A DNA stretch of 59,984 bases, the filler included. It is 8 parts of 8 records of this genome, joined end to end, with 100 filler letters (N's around TTAATTAATTAA, not from the genome) between each part and the next. Parts side by side here need not be neighbours in the genome. Positions count along the whole stretch, not along the records: positions 13,160 to 21,170 come from SRR31147125_2115; 7 more parts are not named here. The stretch is one strand, 5' to 3'. Within the stretch, counting starts at the first letter, position 1; each line of letters starts with the position of its first letter. A model generated the notes under the pieces. The model searched no databases and was not told the origin of the DNA. It was given only the letters and a program-made list of their open reading frames with translations. The position numbers and the translations under genes were made by a program. Positions 452 through 37,747 of the stretch are shown in pieces.

Positions 452-1636
452 TTATGATATCTCTTCATACAAGCTCTTTATTAACTGTCTATATGTTGCA
501 ATACTCGTTATTTTCATATCTGAATTAACAAAGCAAATAACGCCCTTGTTATTGTTTGGGGCAAAAAAAACAAAAGTAGTAATACCAGGGTCTCCGCCAC
601 TATGGCCAGGTGCTATTCCATCACTATTGATCAATAATTCTGACGTTGACTTTAGATACCATGTAAGGCCAAAATCCTCTGTTATATTATCTATTTGTGG
701 TGAAAGAATTTGCTTAACTGTTTCTTCTTTTAAAATTTGAACCCCGTTATAAGTTCCGTTATTCATCATCATACTGATGAATTTTTGAAAATCACCAACA
801 CTAGTACGTAAAGTCCCGTCTGGATAAGTTGCAAAACCATAGTGTGGCAAAGGCTTTCCACCAGAGTAAGGTACTGCAATTTTGCTTTCATCTAGTTCCG
901 ATATCATCCATGCTGTATTATTCATAGCCAGCGGCTCAAATATATTTTGATTACAATATTCGTTAAACGGCATACCAGATACGGTTTCTACAATATAGCC
1001 GAGTAATGCATAACCGCAGTTAGAATACACATGCGCAGTTGCAGGAGGCTTATCCAAGAAATTCTGCTCTGCATCATAATACTTTCCGTCTTTCATAAAA
1101 TAACCTTGTACAAAATCTGAAAGGGTAACTTTGCAGTCTCCACCTCCGCTGCTAATAGTATAAAACTGATCATACACTTCCCAATTATCTGCTATTGAAG
1201 ACGTATGCGTAAGCAAATTCCTTACTGTAATAATTTCGTTTTTAAAGTTTGGGTTAAAAATATCAAAAAAAATATAATCATTAATATCCCTATCTAAATC
1301 CAGCTTCTCTTGCTCTACCAGCTGCATAACAGCACAGCCCGTAACGGTTTTTGATATTGAAGCTATCTGAAAAATTGTGTCCTCATTAATATCACTATTG
1401 TTCTCTATATCCATTTTCCCATAGGAATAGAAAGACTCCAAACTATCATCATCAATAATCCCAACTGCAATGCCTGCAACATCCATCTTATCATATGCAA
1501 GCTCTATGTAATCTCCTATATCATCAGGACCATTAAATATCATATTTGGCATTATAAATATTGCAAATAATAATATGATTAAACCAATTAAGGCAAGTAG
1601 TATATATCCTAATATTTTAAGTATTTTCATTAACAT
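452..1636 (-). CDS. Serine hydrolase, beta-lactamase class C/AmpC-like family, N-terminally anchored
   Basis: Catalytic motifs SxxK (ASISK), YxN (YSN) and HSG; LLTHTSS; N-terminal TM helix. Start moved to ATG 1636 (or 1630) after AAGAAAGG. Confidence 0.9.
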   Translation of the reverse strand: MLMKILKILGYILLALIGLIILLFAIFIMPNMIFNGPDDIGDYIELAYDKMDVAGIAVGIIDDDSLESFYSYGKMDIENNSDINEDTIFQIASISKTVTGCAVMQLVEQEKLDLDRDINDYIFFDIFNPNFKNEIITVRNLLTHTSSIADNWEVYDQFYTISSGGGDCKVTLSDFVQGYFMKDGKYYDAEQNFLDKPPATAHVYSNCGYALLGYIVETVSGMPFNEYCNQNIFEPLAMNNTAWMISELDESKIAVPYSGGKPLPHYGFATYPDGTLRTSVGDFQKFISMMMNNGTYNGVQILKEETVKQILSPQIDNITEDFGLTWYLKSTSELLINSDGIAPGHSGGDPGITTFVFFAPNNNKGVICFVNSDMKITSIATYRQLIKSLYEEIS

Positions 1637-13059: not shown

Positions 13060-13159
13060 NNNNNNNNNNNNNNNNNNNNNNNNNNNNNNNNNNNNNNNNN
13101 NNNTTAATTAATTAANNNNNNNNNNNNNNNNNNNNNNNNNNNNNNNNNNNNNNNNNNNN
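13060..13159. other. Artificial contig spacer
   Basis: N44-TTAATTAATTAA-N44. Confidence 0.99.
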
Positions 13160-13320
13160 CCCCCGCCTGGCAGGCGGGGAAATTATCGTGCTGTTAATTT
13201 ATTTTGTGTTTCAAGATATTATTTGAAATACAGACATTTCTCCGCCTGAGGAGTACGCAGCGACGCTGTGTGAAGTGGTGCATATTTTTATCTGTCATTA
13301 GTAGCAAAGCAAGGAATCTG
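13160..13320. repeat. REP-like palindromes at contig start
   Basis: CCCCGCCTG-G-CAGGCGGGG perfect hairpin (13161-13179); degenerate TGTCATTAGTAGCAAAGCAAGGAATCT (13293-13319). Confidence 0.5.
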
Positions 13321-13660
13321 TTACATTTTTCAGCCATCACTAACTCGGTATTCAACTGTTAATTAAAACTTTTTGTTTTCTGATATTTGTTCGTTTTAAT
13401 TTTGTTAAATTAGTAGGCGTTTGTAAATGTTTATAAACGTTTGTAAGCACTTACAAATACTTTAAACGGTTTAAATACAATAAATTAGTTTTGTTTTTGT
13501 AGAGGATTGAAAAGGTGCATATATTCACACGTTGCTTCATACAAAAAAGACCGTGCGTAATGCAAATCGACAGGAAAATTATAATAAAAGAAGTGAAATA
13601 AAAGGATGGAAAAATGGTAAGAAAGAAAAAGCCCTCGCTTCGCATTTTTTTAATTTCTCT

Positions 13661-13746
13661 GCCAACACACCAATAGCACATTTGTTTTTTCGCCAACACA
13701 CAAGCCAATGTTGAAAAAACAAAAGAGCTATTTATTACCAACGCTC
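13661..13746 (+). repeat. Conserved hairpin element, copy 1 (GCACATTTG-N35-CAAAAGAGC)
   Basis: ATAGC-ACAT-TTGTTTTTTC...GAAAAAACAA-AAGA-GCTAT with CCAACACAC/CCAACGCTC boxes; second copy at 20858-20945. Confidence 0.75.
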
Positions 13747-13756
13747 AAGTTCTACG

Positions 13757-13764
13757 TATCTTTG
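13757..13764 (+). promoter_or_regulatory. Bacteroidota housekeeping -7 promoter box upstream of hsdR
   Basis: TATCTTTG matches TAnnTTTG, 18 bp before the hsdR ATG. Confidence 0.6.
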
Positions 13765-13782
13765 AGAGTTAAATGAAAACCG

Positions 13783-16188
13783 ATGATAGATAAGAAAAGT
13801 TTATCTGAAAGAGATATATGTACTAAGTTTATCACTCCTGCAATTGAAAAGGCTGGTTGGGATAAACAAACACAGCTACTCGAAGAAGTTTCCTTTACTG
13901 ATGGAAAAATATATGTCAGAGGAAAAAATAACCGCACGAGGTGCAAGAAAACGAGCAGATTACATACTCTACTACAAACCCAATATTCCGATTGCAATTG
14001 TTGAAGCAAAAGACAATAAGCATTCTGTCAGAGCAGGAATGCAACAAGGACTTGATTATGCTGAAATATTAGATATTCCATTCGTTTTTAGTAGCAACGG
14101 AGACGGTTTCTTGTTTCACGACAAAACACAAAACTCTGGAAATATTGAAACAGAATTAGATAATAACAGTTTCCCAAGTCCGCAAGAACTCTGGGCAAAA
14201 TACAAACAATACAAAGGGATTGAAACTCCTGAAGCTGAGAAAGTAGTAGAACAGGATTACTTTTTCGATGGTAGTGGTAGAACTCCAAGATACTATCAAC
14301 AAAATGCAGTAAATAGAACACTTGAAGCCATTGCCAAAGGTCAAGACCGAATTATCTTGGTAATGGCAACGGGAACAGGAAAAACATATACTGCTTTTCA
14401 AATCATTCATAGACTTTGGAAAAGTGGAGCAAAAAGAGGATTCTTTTTCTTGCCGACCGTAACGCTTTAATTGACCAAACCCGAAGAGGCGATTTTAAAC
14501 ATTTCAAAGATAAAATGACGGTGGTAAAACACCGTATGATTGACAAGAGTTATGAAGTTTATTTGGCTTTATATCAAGGTTTGTCTGGTGCTGACGAACA
14601 AGCCAATGCCTACAAACAATTTTCGCCCGAATTCTTTGATTTAATTGTAATTGATGAGTGCCACCGAGGAAGTGCAAAAGAAGACAGTGCTTGGCGTGAA
14701 ATATTAACTTATTTCAAAAAAGCAACTCATATTGGTTTAACAGCTACGCCAAAAGAAACCAACGAAGTCTCAAATATTGAATATTTTGGAGACCCCGTTT
14801 ATACTTATTCCTTGAAACAGGGAATTGACGATGGTTTTTTAGCTCCTTACCGTGTGGTTCGTGTGAATTTGAATGTTGATGCCGAAGGTTGGCGACCAGA
14901 ACAAGGGAAAAAAGACAAGGACGGTATTGAAGTTGAAGACCGTGTTTACAATAGAAAAGATTTTGACCGCACTTTGGTTATTGATGAACGAACTCAAATA
15001 GTTGCAAAAAAGCTGAGCGAATTTATGAAAGGCTTTGACCGATTTGCAAAAACAATTGTATTCTGTTCTGATATTGACCACGCAGAAAGAATGCGGACTG
15101 CTTTATCAAATTTGAATAGTGATTTGACGGCAAAAAATCATAAATACATTATGCAGATTACAGGCGATAATGACGAGGGGAAACGAGAGTTGGATAATTT
15201 TATAAATCCCGAAGAACGCTATCCTGTAATTGCCACTACCTCAGAGCTTATGACTACTGGTGTTGATGCTCAAACGTGTAAGATAATTGTTTTGGACAGC
15301 GAGATTAAGTCAATGACCAAATTCAAACAAGTTGTTGGTAGAGGAACACGAATAAACGAAGAATTTAACAAACTATATTTTACAATACTCGATTTTAGAA
15401 ATGTAACAGATTTGTTTGCAGACCCCGAGTTCGATGGTGAACCCATTCGAGTAAAACCAGTTGCGGAAAATGAAGATTTATCTTTTGTTGTAAGCGAAGA
15501 AGAGGAGAATGAAATAAAAGCTATAGATGAGCTAACAGGTGAAGAAGTCGTTTTCGAAAAAGCCAAAATCCGTTATCCGGACGGCTCAGGTATTGAAGGC
15601 GATTGGGTAGCGAAAGAGCCTAGACAAAAGGTATATGTAAACGGTGTTGATGTTTCTGTATTGATTAGCCGTGAAATGTATTTTGACAATGATGGAAAAC
15701 CAATTACCACAAGCTTAAAAGACCATACCAAAAAGTTAATTAAAGGTCAATATGCTTCATTGGATGATTTTTTGAATAAATGGAACAGTACTGATAAAAA
15801 GGAAATAATCATAAAAGAACTGGAACAACAAGGCGTTTTGGTTGAAGCTTTACGAAATGCAGTAAACAGGCAATGCGATTTATTTGACTTAATCTGCCAC
15901 GTTGCTTTTGAACAGCCACCTCTTACAAGAAAAGAACGAGCAAATAATGTTAAAAAGCGAGATTACTTTACAAAATATGGCAACGAAGCCCGAAAGGTTT
16001 TAGAAAGCCTGCTTGATAAATATGCTGACGAAGGCGTTACTAATATTGAGAGTATGGATGTTTTAAAAGTAAAACCTTTAACCGATTTTGGTTCTCCAAT
16101 GGAAATTATAAAACAATTTGGAAGCAAAGCAAAATATTTAGAGGCAGTAAAAGAACTGGAATACGAATTATATAATACAGGGGCATAA
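13783..16188 (+). CDS. hsdR: Type I restriction enzyme R subunit (EcoAI/EcoEI-like), two apparent frameshifts (near 13925 and 14432)
   Basis: SERDICTKFITPA; ADYIL..IVEAK nuclease motif; RYYQ; MATGTGKT; DECHRG; GLTATP; GRGTR; EcoEI_R_C-like tail. One extra A (GGAAAAAATA) and one missing A (GCAAAAAGAGG) explain the breaks. Confidence 0.93.
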
Positions 16189-16191
16189 AAA

Positions 16192-16428
16192 ATGAGTTTA
16201 GATTTGATAAAACAAAACGAGCAAGATTTACTTAATAAATTATCAGAACTGGTAGAATTAAGCAATGCTAAACTTGTATCACAGGCTAATAGTACATTTT
16301 CCTTAATGTTTTGGCAAATTGGTAAACATATCAACGATTTTCTTTTGACGGATAATCGTGCTGAATATGGAAAATACATAATGTCGACACTGTCTACACA
16401 TTTAACCAAGAGATATGGCAAACAATAA
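16192..16428 (+). pseudogene. Truncated DUF1016 (YhcG) N-terminal fragment
   Basis: SQANSTFSLMFWQIGKHI...RAEYGKYIMSTLSTHLTKRYGK parallels the N-terminus of the next ORF but stops at 78 aa. Confidence 0.7.
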
Positions 16429-17428
16429 CAAAATAGAAAAATCGTTTTCGAATAGTTTTGTACAACAAGTAAAGTCCATTATTCTTAATGCTCAAAATAA
16501 TGCAGTTAGAAGTGTAAATTTCGAGCGTGTTTTAATGTATTGGAAAATTGGAGAACGGATACTTAAAGAAGAGCAAAACGGAAAAGAAAGAGCTGATTAC
16601 GGAATGTTTATAACTAAGCATTTATCCGAAGAGTTAACAGCTGAATTTGGCACAGGCTTTTCTGTTAGACAGTTAGAATTTTGTCGGCAGTTTTATAAGA
16701 TTTTTCCAATTACGAACGCACTGCGTTCGCAATTGAATTGGACACAATATCGTTTACTCATTCGCATTGATGACGAGGACAAACGAACCTACTATATTGA
16801 GGAAACCTGCAAAAACAATTGGTCTGCTCGGCAATTAGAAAGACAAATTAATAGTAAACTGTACGAACGACTGCTATTAAGTACCAACAAAAAACGAGTA
16901 CTTGCCGTAGCAAAAGGAGAAGCAACACCCGAACACCCCAAAGATATAATAAAAGACCCTATGGTTTTAGAGTTTCTTGGATTAAAACCACAAGCCGAAT
17001 ATTATGAAAAAGATTTGGAACAAGCTATAATAACCAATGTGCAAAGTTTTTTACTTGAACTGGGAAATGGATTTTCGTTTGTTGCACGACAAAAAAGATT
17101 GAATATAGAAGATGATGAATATTTTGCAGATTTAGTTTTCTACAACCGACTATTAAAGAGTTTTGTAATTATTGAAATTAAAACTCACAAAATTACACAT
17201 CAAGATATTGGGCAACTTCAAATGTATGTAAATTACTACGATAGATACGAAAAAACAGAAGAAGAAAACCCAAGCATTGGAATACTTCTTTGTACCGATA
17301 AAAACGATACTATGGTGGAATTGGTATTGCCAGCCCAAAACTCTTCAATTTTGGCAAGTAAGTACCAATTATATTTGCCGACTAAAGAACAAATGATTAA
17401 TCAAATAAAAGATATAAGACTTAAATAA
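16415..17428 (+). CDS. YhcG/DUF1016 PD-(D/E)xK nuclease family protein
   Basis: YWKIGERI..RADYG; WSARQLERQI; IKDPMVLEFL; LLELGNGFSFVARQKR; ADLVFYNRLL..IEIK; GQLQMYVNYYD. Confidence 0.92.
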   Translation: MANNNKIEKSFSNSFVQQVKSIILNAQNNAVRSVNFERVLMYWKIGERILKEEQNGKERADYGMFITKHLSEELTAEFGTGFSVRQLEFCRQFYKIFPITNALRSQLNWTQYRLLIRIDDEDKRTYYIEETCKNNWSARQLERQINSKLYERLLLSTNKKRVLAVAKGEATPEHPKDIIKDPMVLEFLGLKPQAEYYEKDLEQAIITNVQSFLLELGNGFSFVARQKRLNIEDDEYFADLVFYNRLLKSFVIIEIKTHKITHQDIGQLQMYVNYYDRYEKTEEENPSIGILLCTDKNDTMVELVLPAQNSSILASKYQLYLPTKEQMINQIKDIRLK

Positions 17429-18865
17429 ATGGCAAATTTAAAAGGGATATTAGATAGCATCCGCAAAATAATGTGGACAGACACAGGGCTGAACGGCGAT
17501 GCTCAAAGAATTGAGCAATTGGGATGGATGTTGTTTTTCAAAATCTTTTCAGATAAAGACAAAGAACTTGAAATAATGGATGACAATTATGTTAGTCCGA
17601 TACCTGCCGAACTGCATTGGGACGCATGGGCTGGTGATGATGAAGGAATTACAGGCGATGAACTACAAGACTTTGTAGAAAATAAACTGTTCAAGCAATT
17701 AAAAGATATTCAGCTTGTGCCATCGGAAGATATCAAATATAAGCGAGCCTTAATACTTCGCGAAGTGTTTGAGGGCAACAACAACTATATGAAAAGCGGA
17801 ACAAATATCCGCAAAGTGCTGAATAAACTCAACGAAATTGATTTTAATACCACCAAAGACAAACACGCTTTTGGCGAATTGTACGAAACCATTCTGAAAG
17901 AACTGCAATCGGCAGGTAAATCGGGTGAGTTTTATACTCCAAGAGCTATAACCAGTTTTATTACCGAGATGATAAACCCACAATTGGGCGAAAAAATTCT
18001 TGACCCAGCTTGTGGTACTGGTGGATATTTGACCGCAGCTATTGAGCATCTTAAAAAGCAAGCCAATAGCGTAGAAGAAAGACAAAGCATTGCAAAAAAC
18101 ATAATCGGATGGGAATACAAACCCTTGCCTTATTTGTTGGCTACAACTAACTTGATTTTACACGAAATGGAAGTGCCAAACATTACCTTTCGTGATAGTT
18201 TAGACCAACCTTTGAGCAATTACACCGAGAAAAACAGGGTAAACGCAATTTTGGCAAATCCTCCTTTTGGTGGCATTGTTGCCAATAATAACGAAAACAA
18301 TTTTCCACAGAATTTCAGGACAAAAGAAAGTGCCGACCTATTCCTAATCTTAATGATTCACTTGCTAAAACAAGGCGGACGTGCAGGAATTGTTTTGCCT
18401 GACGGTTCACTTACAGGTGATGGAGTAAAACAAAGGGTGAGACAAAAATTGTTGGAAGATTGTAATTTACATACCATTATTCGTTTACCAAATTCTGTTT
18501 TTAAACCTTATGCAACGGTAGCTACTAACCTTTTGTTTTTTACCAAAGGTGAACCAACAAAAGAAGTTTGGTACTACGAACACCAACTACCTACAGATTA
18601 CAAGTCGTATAGTATGACAAGACCTTTGCAACTAAAGGAACTTGAACCAATTAAGAAGTGGTGGAACAACAGAAAAGAAAGTGAAGTTTGTTGGAAAGTA
18701 GATTTACAAACAATTATTGACCGTAATTACGACTTAGACATAAACAATCCCAATAAAAAGGAAGAAGTAATAGAACACAATAGTTCTGAACTTATGGAAA
18801 TGTTGGATGCCTCTTTTGACAAAAGTCATAATTTATTAACGCAAATAAGAGAAGCCGTTAAATGA
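17429..18865 (+). CDS. hsdM: Type I R-M methyltransferase M subunit (m6A)
   Basis: GEFYTPR, DPACGTGG (motif I), ANPPF (motif IV); ATGA overlap with hsdS. Confidence 0.95.
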   Translation: MANLKGILDSIRKIMWTDTGLNGDAQRIEQLGWMLFFKIFSDKDKELEIMDDNYVSPIPAELHWDAWAGDDEGITGDELQDFVENKLFKQLKDIQLVPSEDIKYKRALILREVFEGNNNYMKSGTNIRKVLNKLNEIDFNTTKDKHAFGELYETILKELQSAGKSGEFYTPRAITSFITEMINPQLGEKILDPACGTGGYLTAAIEHLKKQANSVEERQSIAKNIIGWEYKPLPYLLATTNLILHEMEVPNITFRDSLDQPLSNYTEKNRVNAILANPPFGGIVANNNENNFPQNFRTKESADLFLILMIHLLKQGGRAGIVLPDGSLTGDGVKQRVRQKLLEDCNLHTIIRLPNSVFKPYATVATNLLFFTKGEPTKEVWYYEHQLPTDYKSYSMTRPLQLKELEPIKKWWNNRKESEVCWKVDLQTIIDRNYDLDINNPNKKEEVIEHNSSELMEMLDASFDKSHNLLTQIREAVK

Positions 18866-20856
18866 GTTGGGGAAAGAAGAGATTAGGCGAATTGTGTTCA
18901 ATCACAAAAGGAAAAATTGGGATTAAAAAAGCTATTCCAGGCGAATATCCTTTGGTAGTAACCAGTAAAGAAAGAAAATCACACAATGAAATGCATTTTG
19001 AAGGTGAAGCAGTTGTTATTCCTTTAGTTTCTTCAACAGGTCATGGTCATAGAAGCTTAAAAAGAATTCATCATCAAACAGGAAAATTTGCTGTTGGAAA
19101 TATTCTTTGTGCTGTTATACCAAATGATAGTAATATTTTGAGCGCAGAATACTTATATCGTTTTCTTGACTTAAATAGAGAAAAAGAACTGGTTAGCCGT
19201 ATGCGTGGTATGGCAAATGTAAGTTTGCCTATAAAAGAGATTGCAAAAATTGAAATCCCATTACCGCCTTTGGATGAACAACATAAATTTGTTGAAGAAT
19301 ACAAAGCATTGGAAACAGCAAACAATACTTTATCCTCAGAAATCACAATTCAGCTTGATTTAGTAAAACAACTCCACCAAGCCTTTTTACGAGAAGCAAT
19401 GCAGGGGAAGTTAATTGTTAATGATGAATTGTTAATGGTTAATGGGCAAAAAGAGTCTGGGGCGGATTTGTTAGACAAAATAAAAGCCGAAAAAGAGCAA
19501 TTGATTAAGGAGAAGAAAATACGGAAAGGTAAACTACAAGAAGCAGAAACACTAGAAGAATTATTGTTCGATATTCCAACACATTGGACGTGGTGTAAAC
19601 TTGATGAAATATGTAAAAACATAACAGACGGAACACACCAAACGCCTTCATATACAAAAAGTGGAAGAATGTTTTTATCCGCTCAAAATGTGAAGCCTTT
19701 TAAATTTATGCCTGACAATCACAAATTCGTATCAGAAGAAGCTTATCAATCATATATTAAAAACAGGAAAGCAGAAAAAGGCGACTTATTAATTGGACGT
19801 GTTGGTGCAGGTATCGGGGAAACAGCAGTAGTTGACCAGGATTTAGATTTTGCTATTTATGTTAGTTTGGGTCTCGTTCAGCCATTCAAAAATTATTTGT
19901 GTTCTAATTTCTTAGCATATTTGTTTAATTCTCCTTACGGATATAATTATGCAAAAGGCAATATTTCAAGTAAAGGTGGTTCGGCTGGTAACTTTAATTT
20001 GGGGCGTATTCGTTCATTTTTAGTTCCCTTGCCTCCACTTTCCGAACAAAAGCGTATTGTAGCCAAATTAGATGAGTTAATGGCACATTGTGATAGTTTG
20101 GAAGAGAGCATAAAAAACAGCCAACAACAAAATGAAATGCTTTTGGGGCAGGTTTTGAGGGAGGCTTTGGAGCCGAAAACTGAAAAAGCTATAACAAAGC
20201 AAGCAAAAGTTGTTGCGTTACCCAAGTTACAAGAATTGGAAGATAGCTATTTTGTAAAACGCAAAATGCTTGCATCTTATATCATTAATCAATCAGTAAA
20301 CGATAAACTATTTGGCGACACAAAGTTCGAAAAGTTATTACATCTCGCCGACTACCATATTCTTAAAAGGAATCTTGGTCAGGAATATAAAATAAAAGCT
20401 GCTGGACCTTATGACAATAAGTTTACCCTTACGTTTTTTAAGCAATCCATAAAAGCAGGTTGGTTCTACAAACAGCCTATGGGCAATATGAATAGAATCT
20501 TACCTGAGAACAAAACATTAAATCGCAGAAGACTTACGATTTTTTCTCAGCCACCGAGTTGGAGAAACTTAATAGCTTGATTGATGCATTCAAAAGTTTT
20601 GATTATAAAATCCCAGAGATTATTTCAACCTTATATGCCATTTGGAATAATCGTATAATTCAAAAGCAACTTATTAGTGATGAGCTATTAAAACAAGATT
20701 TTTTAGATTGGGATGAAGGCAAAGCACAATATGTTTACCCTAAAGACAGGGTAATACCAGCAATCAAATGGATGAAAGAGAATAATTTTGTACCTGACGG
20801 TTGGGGAAAGATTATTGAACGCCCTAAAAGCAAAACTAAAAGAAAAAAAGGTATAA
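18862..20856 (+). CDS. hsdS: Type I R-M specificity subunit with an extra C-terminal domain (frameshift near 20506)
   Basis: Two TRDs each followed by the conserved PLPPL.EQ helix; LREAMQGKL spacer; extension KFEKLLHL...AAGPYD continues in ORF 20559-21011 (PEIISTLYAIWN). Probable true stop near 20856. Confidence 0.85.
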
Positions 20857-20857
20857 T

Positions 20858-20945
20858 GCCACCGCACACTTGTAAGCACATTTGCAGGTCGCACAATGCC
20901 ACCGCACGACCAAAACCTGCAAAAGAGCTTCCAAGCCCCTACACA
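20858..20945 (+). repeat. Conserved hairpin element, copy 2 (GCACATTTG-N35-CAAAAGAGC)
   Basis: AAGC-ACAT-TTGCAGGT...ACCTGCAA-AAGA-GCTT with CCACCGCAC boxes; same spacing as copy 1. Confidence 0.75.
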
Positions 20946-21029
20946 CGGCTAAAGAGAAATTTTAAAAAATGCCCCACCGCACGAGTGAAAAAAATGAAAC
21001 AAAATGAATAGAATAAATAAAGTACGAAA

Positions 21030-21145
21030 GCACAACGAAGTATATAAATCATTGGGCAGTAAGTGGTTAAGTTGAAGTTTGTGCAAAAAATGAAAATTAG
21101 TAGCAAATTGAAAATGAAGTGCTTCAAAACGCCCAACGCTTCATA
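21030..21145 (+). repeat. attC-like imperfect palindrome, right arm interrupted
   Basis: GCACAAC (RYYYAAC-like), left arm GTATATAAATCATTGGGC, right arm GCCCAACGCTTCATA, which breaks off before a matching GTT core. Confidence 0.5.
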
Positions 21146-21170
21146 GTGTGCCGAGAAGCAATGATTCGGC
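21146..21170 (+). mobile_element. Probable 5' end of a group II intron
   Basis: Starts GTGTG (GUGYG consensus) with hairpin GCCGAG...TTCGGC exactly where the attC-like arm breaks; the contig ends 25 nt in. Confidence 0.45.
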
Positions 21171-21270
21171 NNNNNNNNNNNNNNNNNNNNNNNNNNNNNN
21201 NNNNNNNNNNNNNNTTAATTAATTAANNNNNNNNNNNNNNNNNNNNNNNNNNNNNNNNNNNNNNNNNNNN
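21171..21270. other. Artificial contig spacer
   Basis: N44-TTAATTAATTAA-N44. Confidence 0.99.
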
Positions 21271-37631: not shown

Positions 37632-37659
37632 AAAAATATTAAATTTATGTTTATTAGTC

Positions 37660-37735
37660 TCACTTCCTGCGATAGCATTATCTATATCAGGTACTAGGGT
37701 CTAATCTCAGCCATAATGGGCACCCCCGGAGGTAT
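37660..37735 (-). ncRNA. TPP (thi-box) riboswitch
   Basis: Minus strand GGGGGTGC..GGCTGAGA..ACCC..ACCTGAT..GATAATGC..CGCAGGAA, upstream of thiN-thiB-thiP. Confidence 0.93.
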
Positions 37736-37747
37736 ATAATTTTTAAT

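Follow-up and report, generated by a model that had tools for sequence, protein, structure and literature searches.

The 59,984-nt stretch of DNA analysed here (the window, along which all positions are counted) contains a Type I restriction-modification (R-M) module which is bracketed by two direct copies of a mismatched DNA hairpin, in the following called H. Our favoured reading, to which we assign a probability of roughly 50%, is that H is a conserved boundary element placed a short way inside both ends of large Bacteroidota integron cassettes with mostly anti-phage content, the R-M module of the window being one such cassette. Both window copies are members of a hairpin family with covarying stems, this family is strictly coupled to the recombination site attC in orientation and proximity, and the crossover signature of cassette recombination lies at attC.

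Results

The two hairpin copies of the window

The two matches to GCACATTTG-N35-CAAAAGAGC stated in an initial annotation of this DNA were recovered on the + strand at 13676-13728 and 20876-20928, and the window contains no third one. When the window was shuffled 100 times with its dinucleotides preserved, this combination never appeared, and the single arms taken alone are not over-represented in the window. Likewise, the six CCA(A/C)C(A/G)CAC-like boxes described around the two copies were all found in the sequence at the positions given for them. Both copies fold as long hairpins on either strand, with energies of -13.7 and -15.6 kcal/mol for the + strand DNA (z values of -3.5 and -2.9). 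In the predicted folds the conserved part of the stem runs G-C, C-G, A.A, C-G, A.A, three times T-A, and G-C. The element ACAT/AAGA, annotated as an invariant unpaired internal loop, is indeed a fixed mismatch motif; it is, however, not a four-base loop and consists of two single A.A mismatches flanking a C-G pair.

Copy 1, which was expected to end about 50 bp before hsdR, ends 54 nt upstream of the ATG at 13783, and copy 2 follows directly on hsdS, the corrected stop codon of which (TAA, 20854-20856) adjoins the 5' box of this copy. The loop of copy 1 is C/A-rich and contains a CCAACACAC box. With the covariance model R1 the two copies, both of which belonged to its seed alignment, scored 72.8 bits (E 2.4e-17, copy 1) and 68.2 bits (E 4.1e-16, copy 2). 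Rfam gave no match at the window hairpins, neither at the gathering score nor at E values up to 10, and a terminator scan called neither of the two copies.

Structure, covariation and spread of the H family

Further genomic copies of H beyond the window do exist: in a search through prokaryotic genomes, with each species represented by one, both exact 10-nt arms were found at no fewer than 124 loci, for a chance expectation of about 28 under uniform base composition, and almost all of these loci are Bacteroidota of many orders as judged by their titles. One plan was observed in 127 distinct sites. A GCCAACCGCACA-like box is followed by an outer stem of 4-7 bp, a conserved arm, an inner stem of 5-7 bp, a C/A-rich loop of 20-25 nt carrying one or two boxes, the return arms and another box. 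The core motif is GCACA(T)TTG/CAA(A)AGAGC with its two A.A mismatches, and both the outer and the inner stems covary. At one pair of the variable stems, for example, the types AU, CG and UA occur 51, 35 and 33 times, at another CG and GC 60 and 48 times. Paired cells make up 97.5% of the alignment compared with 81.6% in shuffles, and the covariation score of 0.347 (0.086 in shuffled alignments, none of 500 reaching the observed value) falls to 0.03-0.09 when the partners are slid against each other; 8 of the 13 pairs in this alignment owe their invariance solely to the search pattern, in which they were fixed. The compensatory changes and the fixed mismatches bear out the view that H is a real, structure-constrained element. 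It is furthermore no named family, since Rfam holds no match and the two arms occur together in no paper of the searched literature.

An independent sample of 151 genomes, drawn evenly from the phylum, contained 41 with H (110 matches). Genomes carry between 1 and 10 copies; in each of five whole genomes R1 found 2-10 copies, mostly as direct pairs 2-10 kb apart. Across the family the loops, boxes and linkers are rich in C and A and poor in G and T, with loop counts of 1123 C, 1040 A, 371 G and 219 T. The inner stems fall into two types, of which 'GTT...' goes with an upstream and 'CAA...' with a downstream attC. As the type of the inner stem tracks the side of attC, the 5' and 3' hairpins (5'H and 3'H) are distinct subtypes, and copies 1 and 2 are one 5' and one 3' subtype, a difference that the annotation had seen as covariation. 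Many 5'-type copies are followed by GTTTTTT; most 3'-type copies have no T run.

A reduced form of the element was met at locus L157 (G049:C33), in the first cassette after the recombinase, where a mini-hairpin CAAAGAGTGC-TATC-GCACACATTG replaces the full 5'H. Its arms stand in swapped order and the loop lies on the opposite side, with the A.A/G-C/A.A duplex motif kept. Nine exact-arm loci (L159-L167) come from IMG/VR, distributed over seven predicted viral contigs; these contigs are predictions and may represent phage or a mis-called island. On one IMG/VR contig of 65.6 kb three H copies lie about 5 kb apart on one strand. A possible role of the 5' arm CACATTTG as a single-strand promoter, suggested by its likeness to the -7 motif, was rejected, since copies found independently of the pattern have TTG and not TTTG.

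Coupling of H to attC and location of the crossover signature

A classical integron cassette consists of an open reading frame (ORF) and an attC, the folded bottom strand of which is recombined by IntI. An array of H-bearing cassettes was found in genome G005, in which 47 attC of about 130 nt lie between 398 and 493 kb, the R' of each matching the R'' of the next. Such R'/R'' chaining of consecutive attCs is the textbook trace of cassette recombination, and the region is a chromosomal integron. All ten H copies of this genome lie inside the same interval on one strand and bracket five multi-gene modules. According to Pfam, these comprise a 13-kb metal efflux module, a conflict system of 2OG, DUF1848, UvrD and ADP-ribosyltransferase proteins, a 1223-aa protein together with a Bro-N protein, a Type I R-M system with KwaB-like and HEPN/MNT genes, and a Type I R-M system with an hsdS shufflon. 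In every case the module forms one cassette whose R' and R'' match, e.g. ...GTTAGGT | H ... H | ACCTAAC-attC. No H was seen in the small cassettes with a single ORF that lie between these modules. A scan with the full models within 100 kb of the array gave 9 H and 46 attC, with one more of each just beyond.

Among the 14 H-bracketed modules examined, matching R'/R'' at the flanking attCs were found for nine (five in G005 and one each in G002, G004, G075 and G049). The crossover point is hence not at H, the R'/R'' chaining being located at attCs outside the hairpins. The five failures are two modules each of G001 and G003 and the module of the window; in the first four a shared sequence occupies the place of R''. 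This interrupting sequence is a group II intron in opposite orientation in one locus, and in a second locus a reverse-strand gene for an intron-type reverse transcriptase follows. The confirmed intron and the reverse transcriptase gene of the second locus fit attC-targeting group IIC introns, whose orientation is known. Introns of this kind are described in an excerpt of PMC3001079. At locus L145 a group II intron (RF02001, RF00029) at 974-1473 (+) lies immediately downstream of the 3'H at 1501-1601 (-) and in opposite orientation to it, at the expected place of attC, and intron-type reverse transcriptase genes adjoin H in L015 and L068.

For a systematic analysis the covariance model R2, built from 24 Bacteroidota attCs, was run on 78 loci. 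It returned 79 attC matches in 46 of them, all 79 on the strand of H. Within 300 nt of H, attC was found upstream only for 22 of 82 copies (12 of these at 23-36 nt), downstream only for 19 (at 65-170 nt) and on both sides for none. R2 did not match at H positions in the window or in the 78 loci, and H itself lacks the RYYYAAC/GTTRRRY boxes of attC, having the arms GCACATTTG/CAAAAGAGC, two A.A mismatches and no bulged bases. Composites of the form H-attC-H were seen in G005, L020 and G018. Three simpler attC detectors were also used: a global arm alignment missed true attCs of G005 and was discarded, folding energy did not separate the flanks of H from controls (8/72 and 11/67 vs 26/241), and a local arm alignment, later superseded by R2, gave 21 of 56 H compared with 6 of 238 control windows.

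In the phylum sample R2 found attC in 83 of the 151 genomes (529 matches), namely in 40 of the 41 H-positive and in 43 of the 110 H-negative genomes. Counting the 150 attC matches listed, at least 32 of the 110 copies of H have one of these on their own strand within 300 nt. The only H-positive genome with no attC match is G016, where H lies about 200 nt after a fragment of a tyrosine-recombinase gene and is followed by an ORF of more than 2.9 kb which leaves the examined stretch; for these reasons we do not regard it as a counter-example.

Conservation across orders was also seen for the roughly 170 nt that link 3'H to attC (L041, L078, L016, L011, L062, L063, L035 and L037), a stretch which contains a AAAAATTGTTTTTAAAAAATTT-like A/T palindrome and CCAACGC-type boxes. 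A conserved motif upstream of H, 'cgttgtgcctcattgtaaaaa', was considered as a gene start or end and rejected, as it represents the R' box of attC plus linker. A pair made up of dapB and a 393-aa gene without a known family is present in two places of G005 (C1:396428-398370 and 420268-422210), immediately behind the recombinase and, bounded by attCs, as a cassette within the array.

The attC of the window and its 5' junction

The annotated view of the defence module as a mobilisable cassette was supported, its kind being that of an integron cassette: an attC follows copy 2. R2 matched the window at 21043-21145 with 33.8 bits (E 3.8e-6), the sole match below an E value of 1. The R' of this site, GTGTGCC, is one T short of GTTGTGC, and the contig ends 19 nt beyond. 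Many members of the family lie close to contig ends in the same manner, as would be expected of repeats at which assemblies break. In analogy to other loci, the GTTGCTT listed in Table 1 resembles an R' with the linker that precedes 5'H. A joint between the two hairpins was not present in the contigs of the public run that contains this DNA, in which rare forms would be invisible.

Cargo and gene neighbourhood

Neighbouring ORFs lie on the strand of H in 63 of 72 cases downstream and in 57 of 72 upstream. Among 71 downstream proteins Pfam identified 14 methyltransferase or endonuclease subunits of R-M systems and 9 XRE-type HTH_3 proteins; TIR, TOTE-AEP, NERD-UvrD, SNF2-PLD, DUF3375, DUF4209, RhuM and DUF1848 were also found, and for 20 of the 71 no Pfam family reached the threshold. 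The upstream proteins are a mixture of defence, mobile-element and housekeeping families. The motif TAnnTTTG, which we take to be the consensus -7 promoter motif of Bacteroidota, lies no more than 160 nt downstream of H in 26 of 54 cases of one group and 20 of 65 of the other, where 3.0 would be expected in each. This enrichment places 5'H upstream of the cassette's own promoter.

At the other end, the upstream ORF on the same strand terminates in 11 of 57 cases at a distance of 12-19 nt from the H arm, as it does in the window, and ORFs of unrelated cargo families have their ends precisely at the 3'H box. The homology between cassettes with unrelated genes starts at the box beside the stop codon and ends about 25 nt past 5'H.

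The window contig and its R-M module

The features of the window are collected in Table 1. As linkers were found on both sides, the R-M module with its two hairpins is a separate contig (13161-21171; 8,011 bp), and genes beyond the linkers are not its true neighbours. The window as a whole consists of concatenated contigs, so that adjacency across linkers is artificial, and further joints are possible elsewhere in it. A thiamine pyrophosphate riboswitch lies at 37646-37737 (-) with 59.8 bits, over the Rfam gathering score.

Within the module Pfam gave the gene order hsdR, DUF1016 fragment, YhcG-type nuclease, hsdM and hsdS. Among the public sequencing runs listed, one DNA run and no RNA run contained this DNA. 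Comparison of the window record with contigs of this DNA run unveiled four indels (13923, 14430, 20505 and 20842), three of them at A runs, which explain every frameshift in hsdR and hsdS. Since single intact ORFs of 801 aa (hsdR) and 665 aa (hsdS) result after this correction, the frame breaks are probably errors of the assembly or the record and not gene decay. The short ORF which adjoins the full YhcG/DUF1016 gene encodes 78 aa and matches only the first 62 positions of DUF1016_N; from its sequence it looks like a partial duplication.

Table 1 Features of the R-M contig and its borders, in positions of the window.
Feature	Position	Strand	Basis and remarks
Contig-joining linker (N run, TTAATTAATTAA, N run)	13060..13160	.	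Sequence
GTTGCTT, then CATACAAAAAAG	13531..13537	+	Resembles attC R' plus linker before 5'H elsewhere (compared by eye)
5' box of copy 1 (GCCAACACACC)	13661..13671	+	Sequence; box conserved across the H family
Hairpin copy 1, 5'-type H	13672..13732	+	Arms 13672-13691 / 13713-13732; core 13676-13728
3' box of copy 1 (TACCAACGCTC)	13736..13746	+	Sequence; family alignment
TATCTTTG, TAnnTTTG match between copy 1 and hsdR start	13757..13764	+	Sequence
hsdR (EcoEI-type R subunit)	13783..16188	+	Pfam; three frames in the window record, single ORF of 801 aa after indel correction
DUF1016 N-terminal fragment	16192-16428	+	Pfam
Full YhcG/DUF1016 PDDEXK nuclease gene	16415-17428	+	Pfam
hsdM (N6 DNA methylase)	17429..18865	+	Pfam
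hsdS	18862..20856	+	Pfam; window-record frameshifts at ~20505 and 20842; corrected 665 aa, TAA 20854-20856
5' box of copy 2 (TGCCACCGCACA)	20857..20868	+	Directly after the hsdS stop codon
Hairpin copy 2, 3'-type H	20869..20935	+	Core 20876-20928; loop box 20897-20907
3'H-attC linker	20936..21029	+	T/G-poor; box TGCCCCACCGCACG at 20970-20983, A/T run; layout as in other loci
attC	21030..21152	+	R'' GCACAAC 21030-21036; palindromic body 21043-21145; imperfect R' GTGTGCC 21146-21152
Contig-joining linker (N run, TTAATTAATTAA, N run)	21172..21270	.	Sequence

Recombinases of H-bearing arrays

IntI-like tyrosine recombinases head the H-bearing arrays in G005, G049 and G075. The best match of the G005 enzyme is TIGR02249 (integron integrase) with 227.8 bits, the cut-off being 265. 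That the window contig holds no recombinase carries no weight, since this contig is only 8 kb long. The recombinases beside H arrays (G005:C1:394576-396309, G049:C33:386953-387768, G075:C1:1799728-1800261 and others) match TIGR02249 in two pieces, about 2-180 and 240-315, with scores below the cut-off, and several carry a long additional N-terminal part (ORFs of 470-600 aa). Judged from this profile comparison, they seem to lack the middle segment or to carry a divergent form of it. In the phylum sample 50 of the 151 genomes have a recombinase above the TIGR02249 cut-off.

Discussion

A proposed boundary element with a possible insulator function

According to the layout we propose, a cassette of this kind would follow on the R' of the previous attC with 23-160 nt, 5'H, a promoter, the cargo genes up to the stop codon, 3'H, a further 56-170 nt and its own attC. 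The module would move by attC recombination through an IntI-like tyrosine recombinase and not at the hairpins. As to the function of H, we tentatively consider it an orientation-specific insulator around self-promoted multi-gene cassettes. The promoter motif after 5'H, the stop codon at 3'H, the restriction to long cassettes and the C/A-rich loops fit such an insulator, and only long multi-gene cassettes carry H. On this model 5'H would stop read-through of the array ahead of the cassette's own promoter, and 3'H would end the cassette transcript before attC and the silent cassettes downstream. Promoter-less cassettes would need read-through, self-regulated operons such as those of R-M systems shielding at both ends. 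A factor recognising the mismatched stem and the C-rich, G-poor boxes would probably be needed, since H is a poor intrinsic terminator, and the sequence conservation of H implies a recognising factor as well.

Several observations weigh against the insulator or against the boundary reading as a whole. With an A/U-rich stem base, two mismatches and mostly no T run in the 3' type, H is a poor intrinsic terminator, and the phylum-wide conservation of arms, mismatches and boxes exceeds what a plain terminator needs. The non-Watson-Crick stem pairs, read on the gene-sense strand, are 16 A.C vs 2 G.T, and attCs analysed as a control have a spectrum of the same direction (118 vs 49). The bottom strand is the folding strand of attC. 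The mismatch bias hints that the opposite (bottom) strand of H folds, but the C/A-rich composition of the strand could also cause it. Furthermore, the orientation of H tracks attC (79/79) more closely than the genes (63/72 downstream, 57/72 upstream). For 41 of the 82 H copies R2 found no attC within 300 nt, and 16 of these 41 are near a locus end. In the window R2 found no attC upstream of the GTTGCTT at 13531-13537, and this heptamer does not match the cassette's own R'' (GCACAAC).

Alternative explanations

The main rival takes H for a single-stranded DNA accessory element of attC recombination, so that 3'H, linker, attC and 5'H would combine into a single attP-like site once the cassette is excised. 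Both hairpins would fold on the strand of attC, i.e. the bottom strand, and would keep the folding of attC clean in long cassettes or, by way of their mismatched stem and box repeats, recruit the recombinase or a cofactor. We consider this explanation unlikely, even though much of the coupling described above agrees with it: H and attC have the same orientation in 79/79 cases and lie close together (23-36 nt after R', 56-170 nt before R''), the composites of G005, L020 and G018 have the proposed form, the mismatch spectrum of H runs in the direction of that of attC, loops and linkers are nearly free of complementary bases, which suits clean single-strand folding, and the A.A/C-G/A.A motif is retained even in the flipped mini-hairpin of G049. 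H is also confined to long cassettes, and recombination is said in an excerpt of 10.1101/2024.07.02.601686 to drop with cassette length. Small cassettes of the same arrays, however, show the recombination signature without H, the distance between 3'H and attC varies threefold with 3'H tracking the stop codon and not attC, and base composition may explain the mismatch bias.

It is improbable that H is itself a tyrosine or HUH recombination site whose direct copies delimit cargo excised or swapped independently of attC, which was the proposal of the initial annotation. The R'/R'' signature lies at attCs just outside H in 9 of 14 modules, the window has an attC behind copy 2, the 5' and 3' copies belong to different subtypes, no cargo-less 5'H-3'H joint was found among the loci inspected, and the neighbouring proteins scanned (71 + 71 + 58) include no HUH/TnpA family. 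These findings outweigh the direct pairs 2-14 kb apart in many genomes, the homology limits of unrelated cargo at the stop-codon box and about 25 nt past 5'H, and the conserved mismatch motif with its suggestion of protein recognition, all of which a recombination site would share. An H without any function, as an inherited remnant of an ancestral cassette backbone or as a selfish repeat in arrays similar to a miniature inverted-repeat transposable element or a repetitive extragenic palindrome (REP), is highly improbable: its confinement to mobile cassettes and its travelling with conserved linkers would suit a remnant or repeat, yet compensatory changes keep both stems paired over at least seven sequence types, arms, mismatches and boxes are fixed across orders, copy number is low (1-10 per genome), and the position relative to attC, promoter and stop codon is fixed. 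We likewise regard as doubtful the idea that 3'H-linker-attC-5'H is a portable cassette chassis in which H marks the exact points of capture or exchange of multi-gene cargo. If it were true, H as a folded single-strand capture substrate with the A.A/C-G/A.A motif would provide a handle on the long-open question of cassette origin.

Significance

On the favoured reading of H as a boundary element, a subclass of large, self-promoted cassettes, mostly of defence or R-M content, has a second conserved structured element at both of its ends. With its presence in about a quarter of the sampled Bacteroidota species (41/151), H would be a simple marker for multi-gene defence cassettes. It points to a factor which recognises a mismatched hairpin, and it may explain the insulation of toxic or tightly regulated operons in arrays or the recombinogenicity of cassettes of 5-13 kb.

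Defence cassettes have been described for Vibrio and mobile integrons in an excerpt of 10.1101/2024.07.02.601686, and excerpts of PMC8618304 and PMC9668308 list Bacteroidota among the phyla with integrons. The IntegronFinder 2.0 preprint, as far as its excerpt goes, gives for Bacteroidota only In0 and one complete integron. Compared with these surveys in the portions consulted, Bacteroidota look as if they hold far more integron material (attC in 83/151 and integrase in 50/151 genomes). A description of conserved hairpins flanking cassette cargo was not found in the literature consulted; the supplements of the integron surveys may list Bacteroidota attC arrays.

Comparison with known systems

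The module resembles integron cassettes in its co-oriented genes followed by an attC (R''/L''...L'/R'), and related arrays share R'/R'' chaining and an IntI-like recombinase at the head. We know of no H-like element in the classical description of a cassette. H and attC have in common that they are imperfect palindromes in which the base is conserved, the stems covary and the orientation is fixed. They differ in that attC has RYYYAAC/GTTRRRY boxes and extrahelical bases in the place of the symmetric A.A mismatches of H, and in that H occurs twice per cassette, inside the crossover points.

Short intergenic hairpins in direct orientation, for which recognition as a folded single strand has been proposed, are also known from REPs and bacterial interspersed mosaic elements with their REP-associated tyrosine transposases (RAYTs), and from the end hairpins of IS200/IS605 elements (palindrome-associated transposable elements). 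REPs are species-specific, are present in hundreds of copies and have an associated Y1 (HUH) transposase. H is, in contrast to REP/RAYT systems, phylum-wide with 1-10 copies per genome, and no Y1/HUH protein was present among the 71 + 71 + 58 neighbours. With terminators or insulators of self-expressed modules H shares the position upstream of the cassette promoter and right after the last stop codon as well as the orientation with array transcription. Unlike ordinary intrinsic terminators, it has a weak and mismatched stem base and often no U tract, and its sequence and boxes are conserved. The arm-type sites of lambda attP, finally, are comparable in so far as repeated short boxes and structured elements stand on both sides of a core crossover. 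The H composite would measure about 450 nt in an excised circle, the form we infer for such an attP-like site. The arm sites of lambda are plain duplex binding sites, whereas H copies are hairpins selected for folding, and an arm-binding domain or cofactor for them would be hypothetical. Set beside these systems, H counts as a new accessory element at the boundaries of integron cassettes, in which attC is the crossover site.

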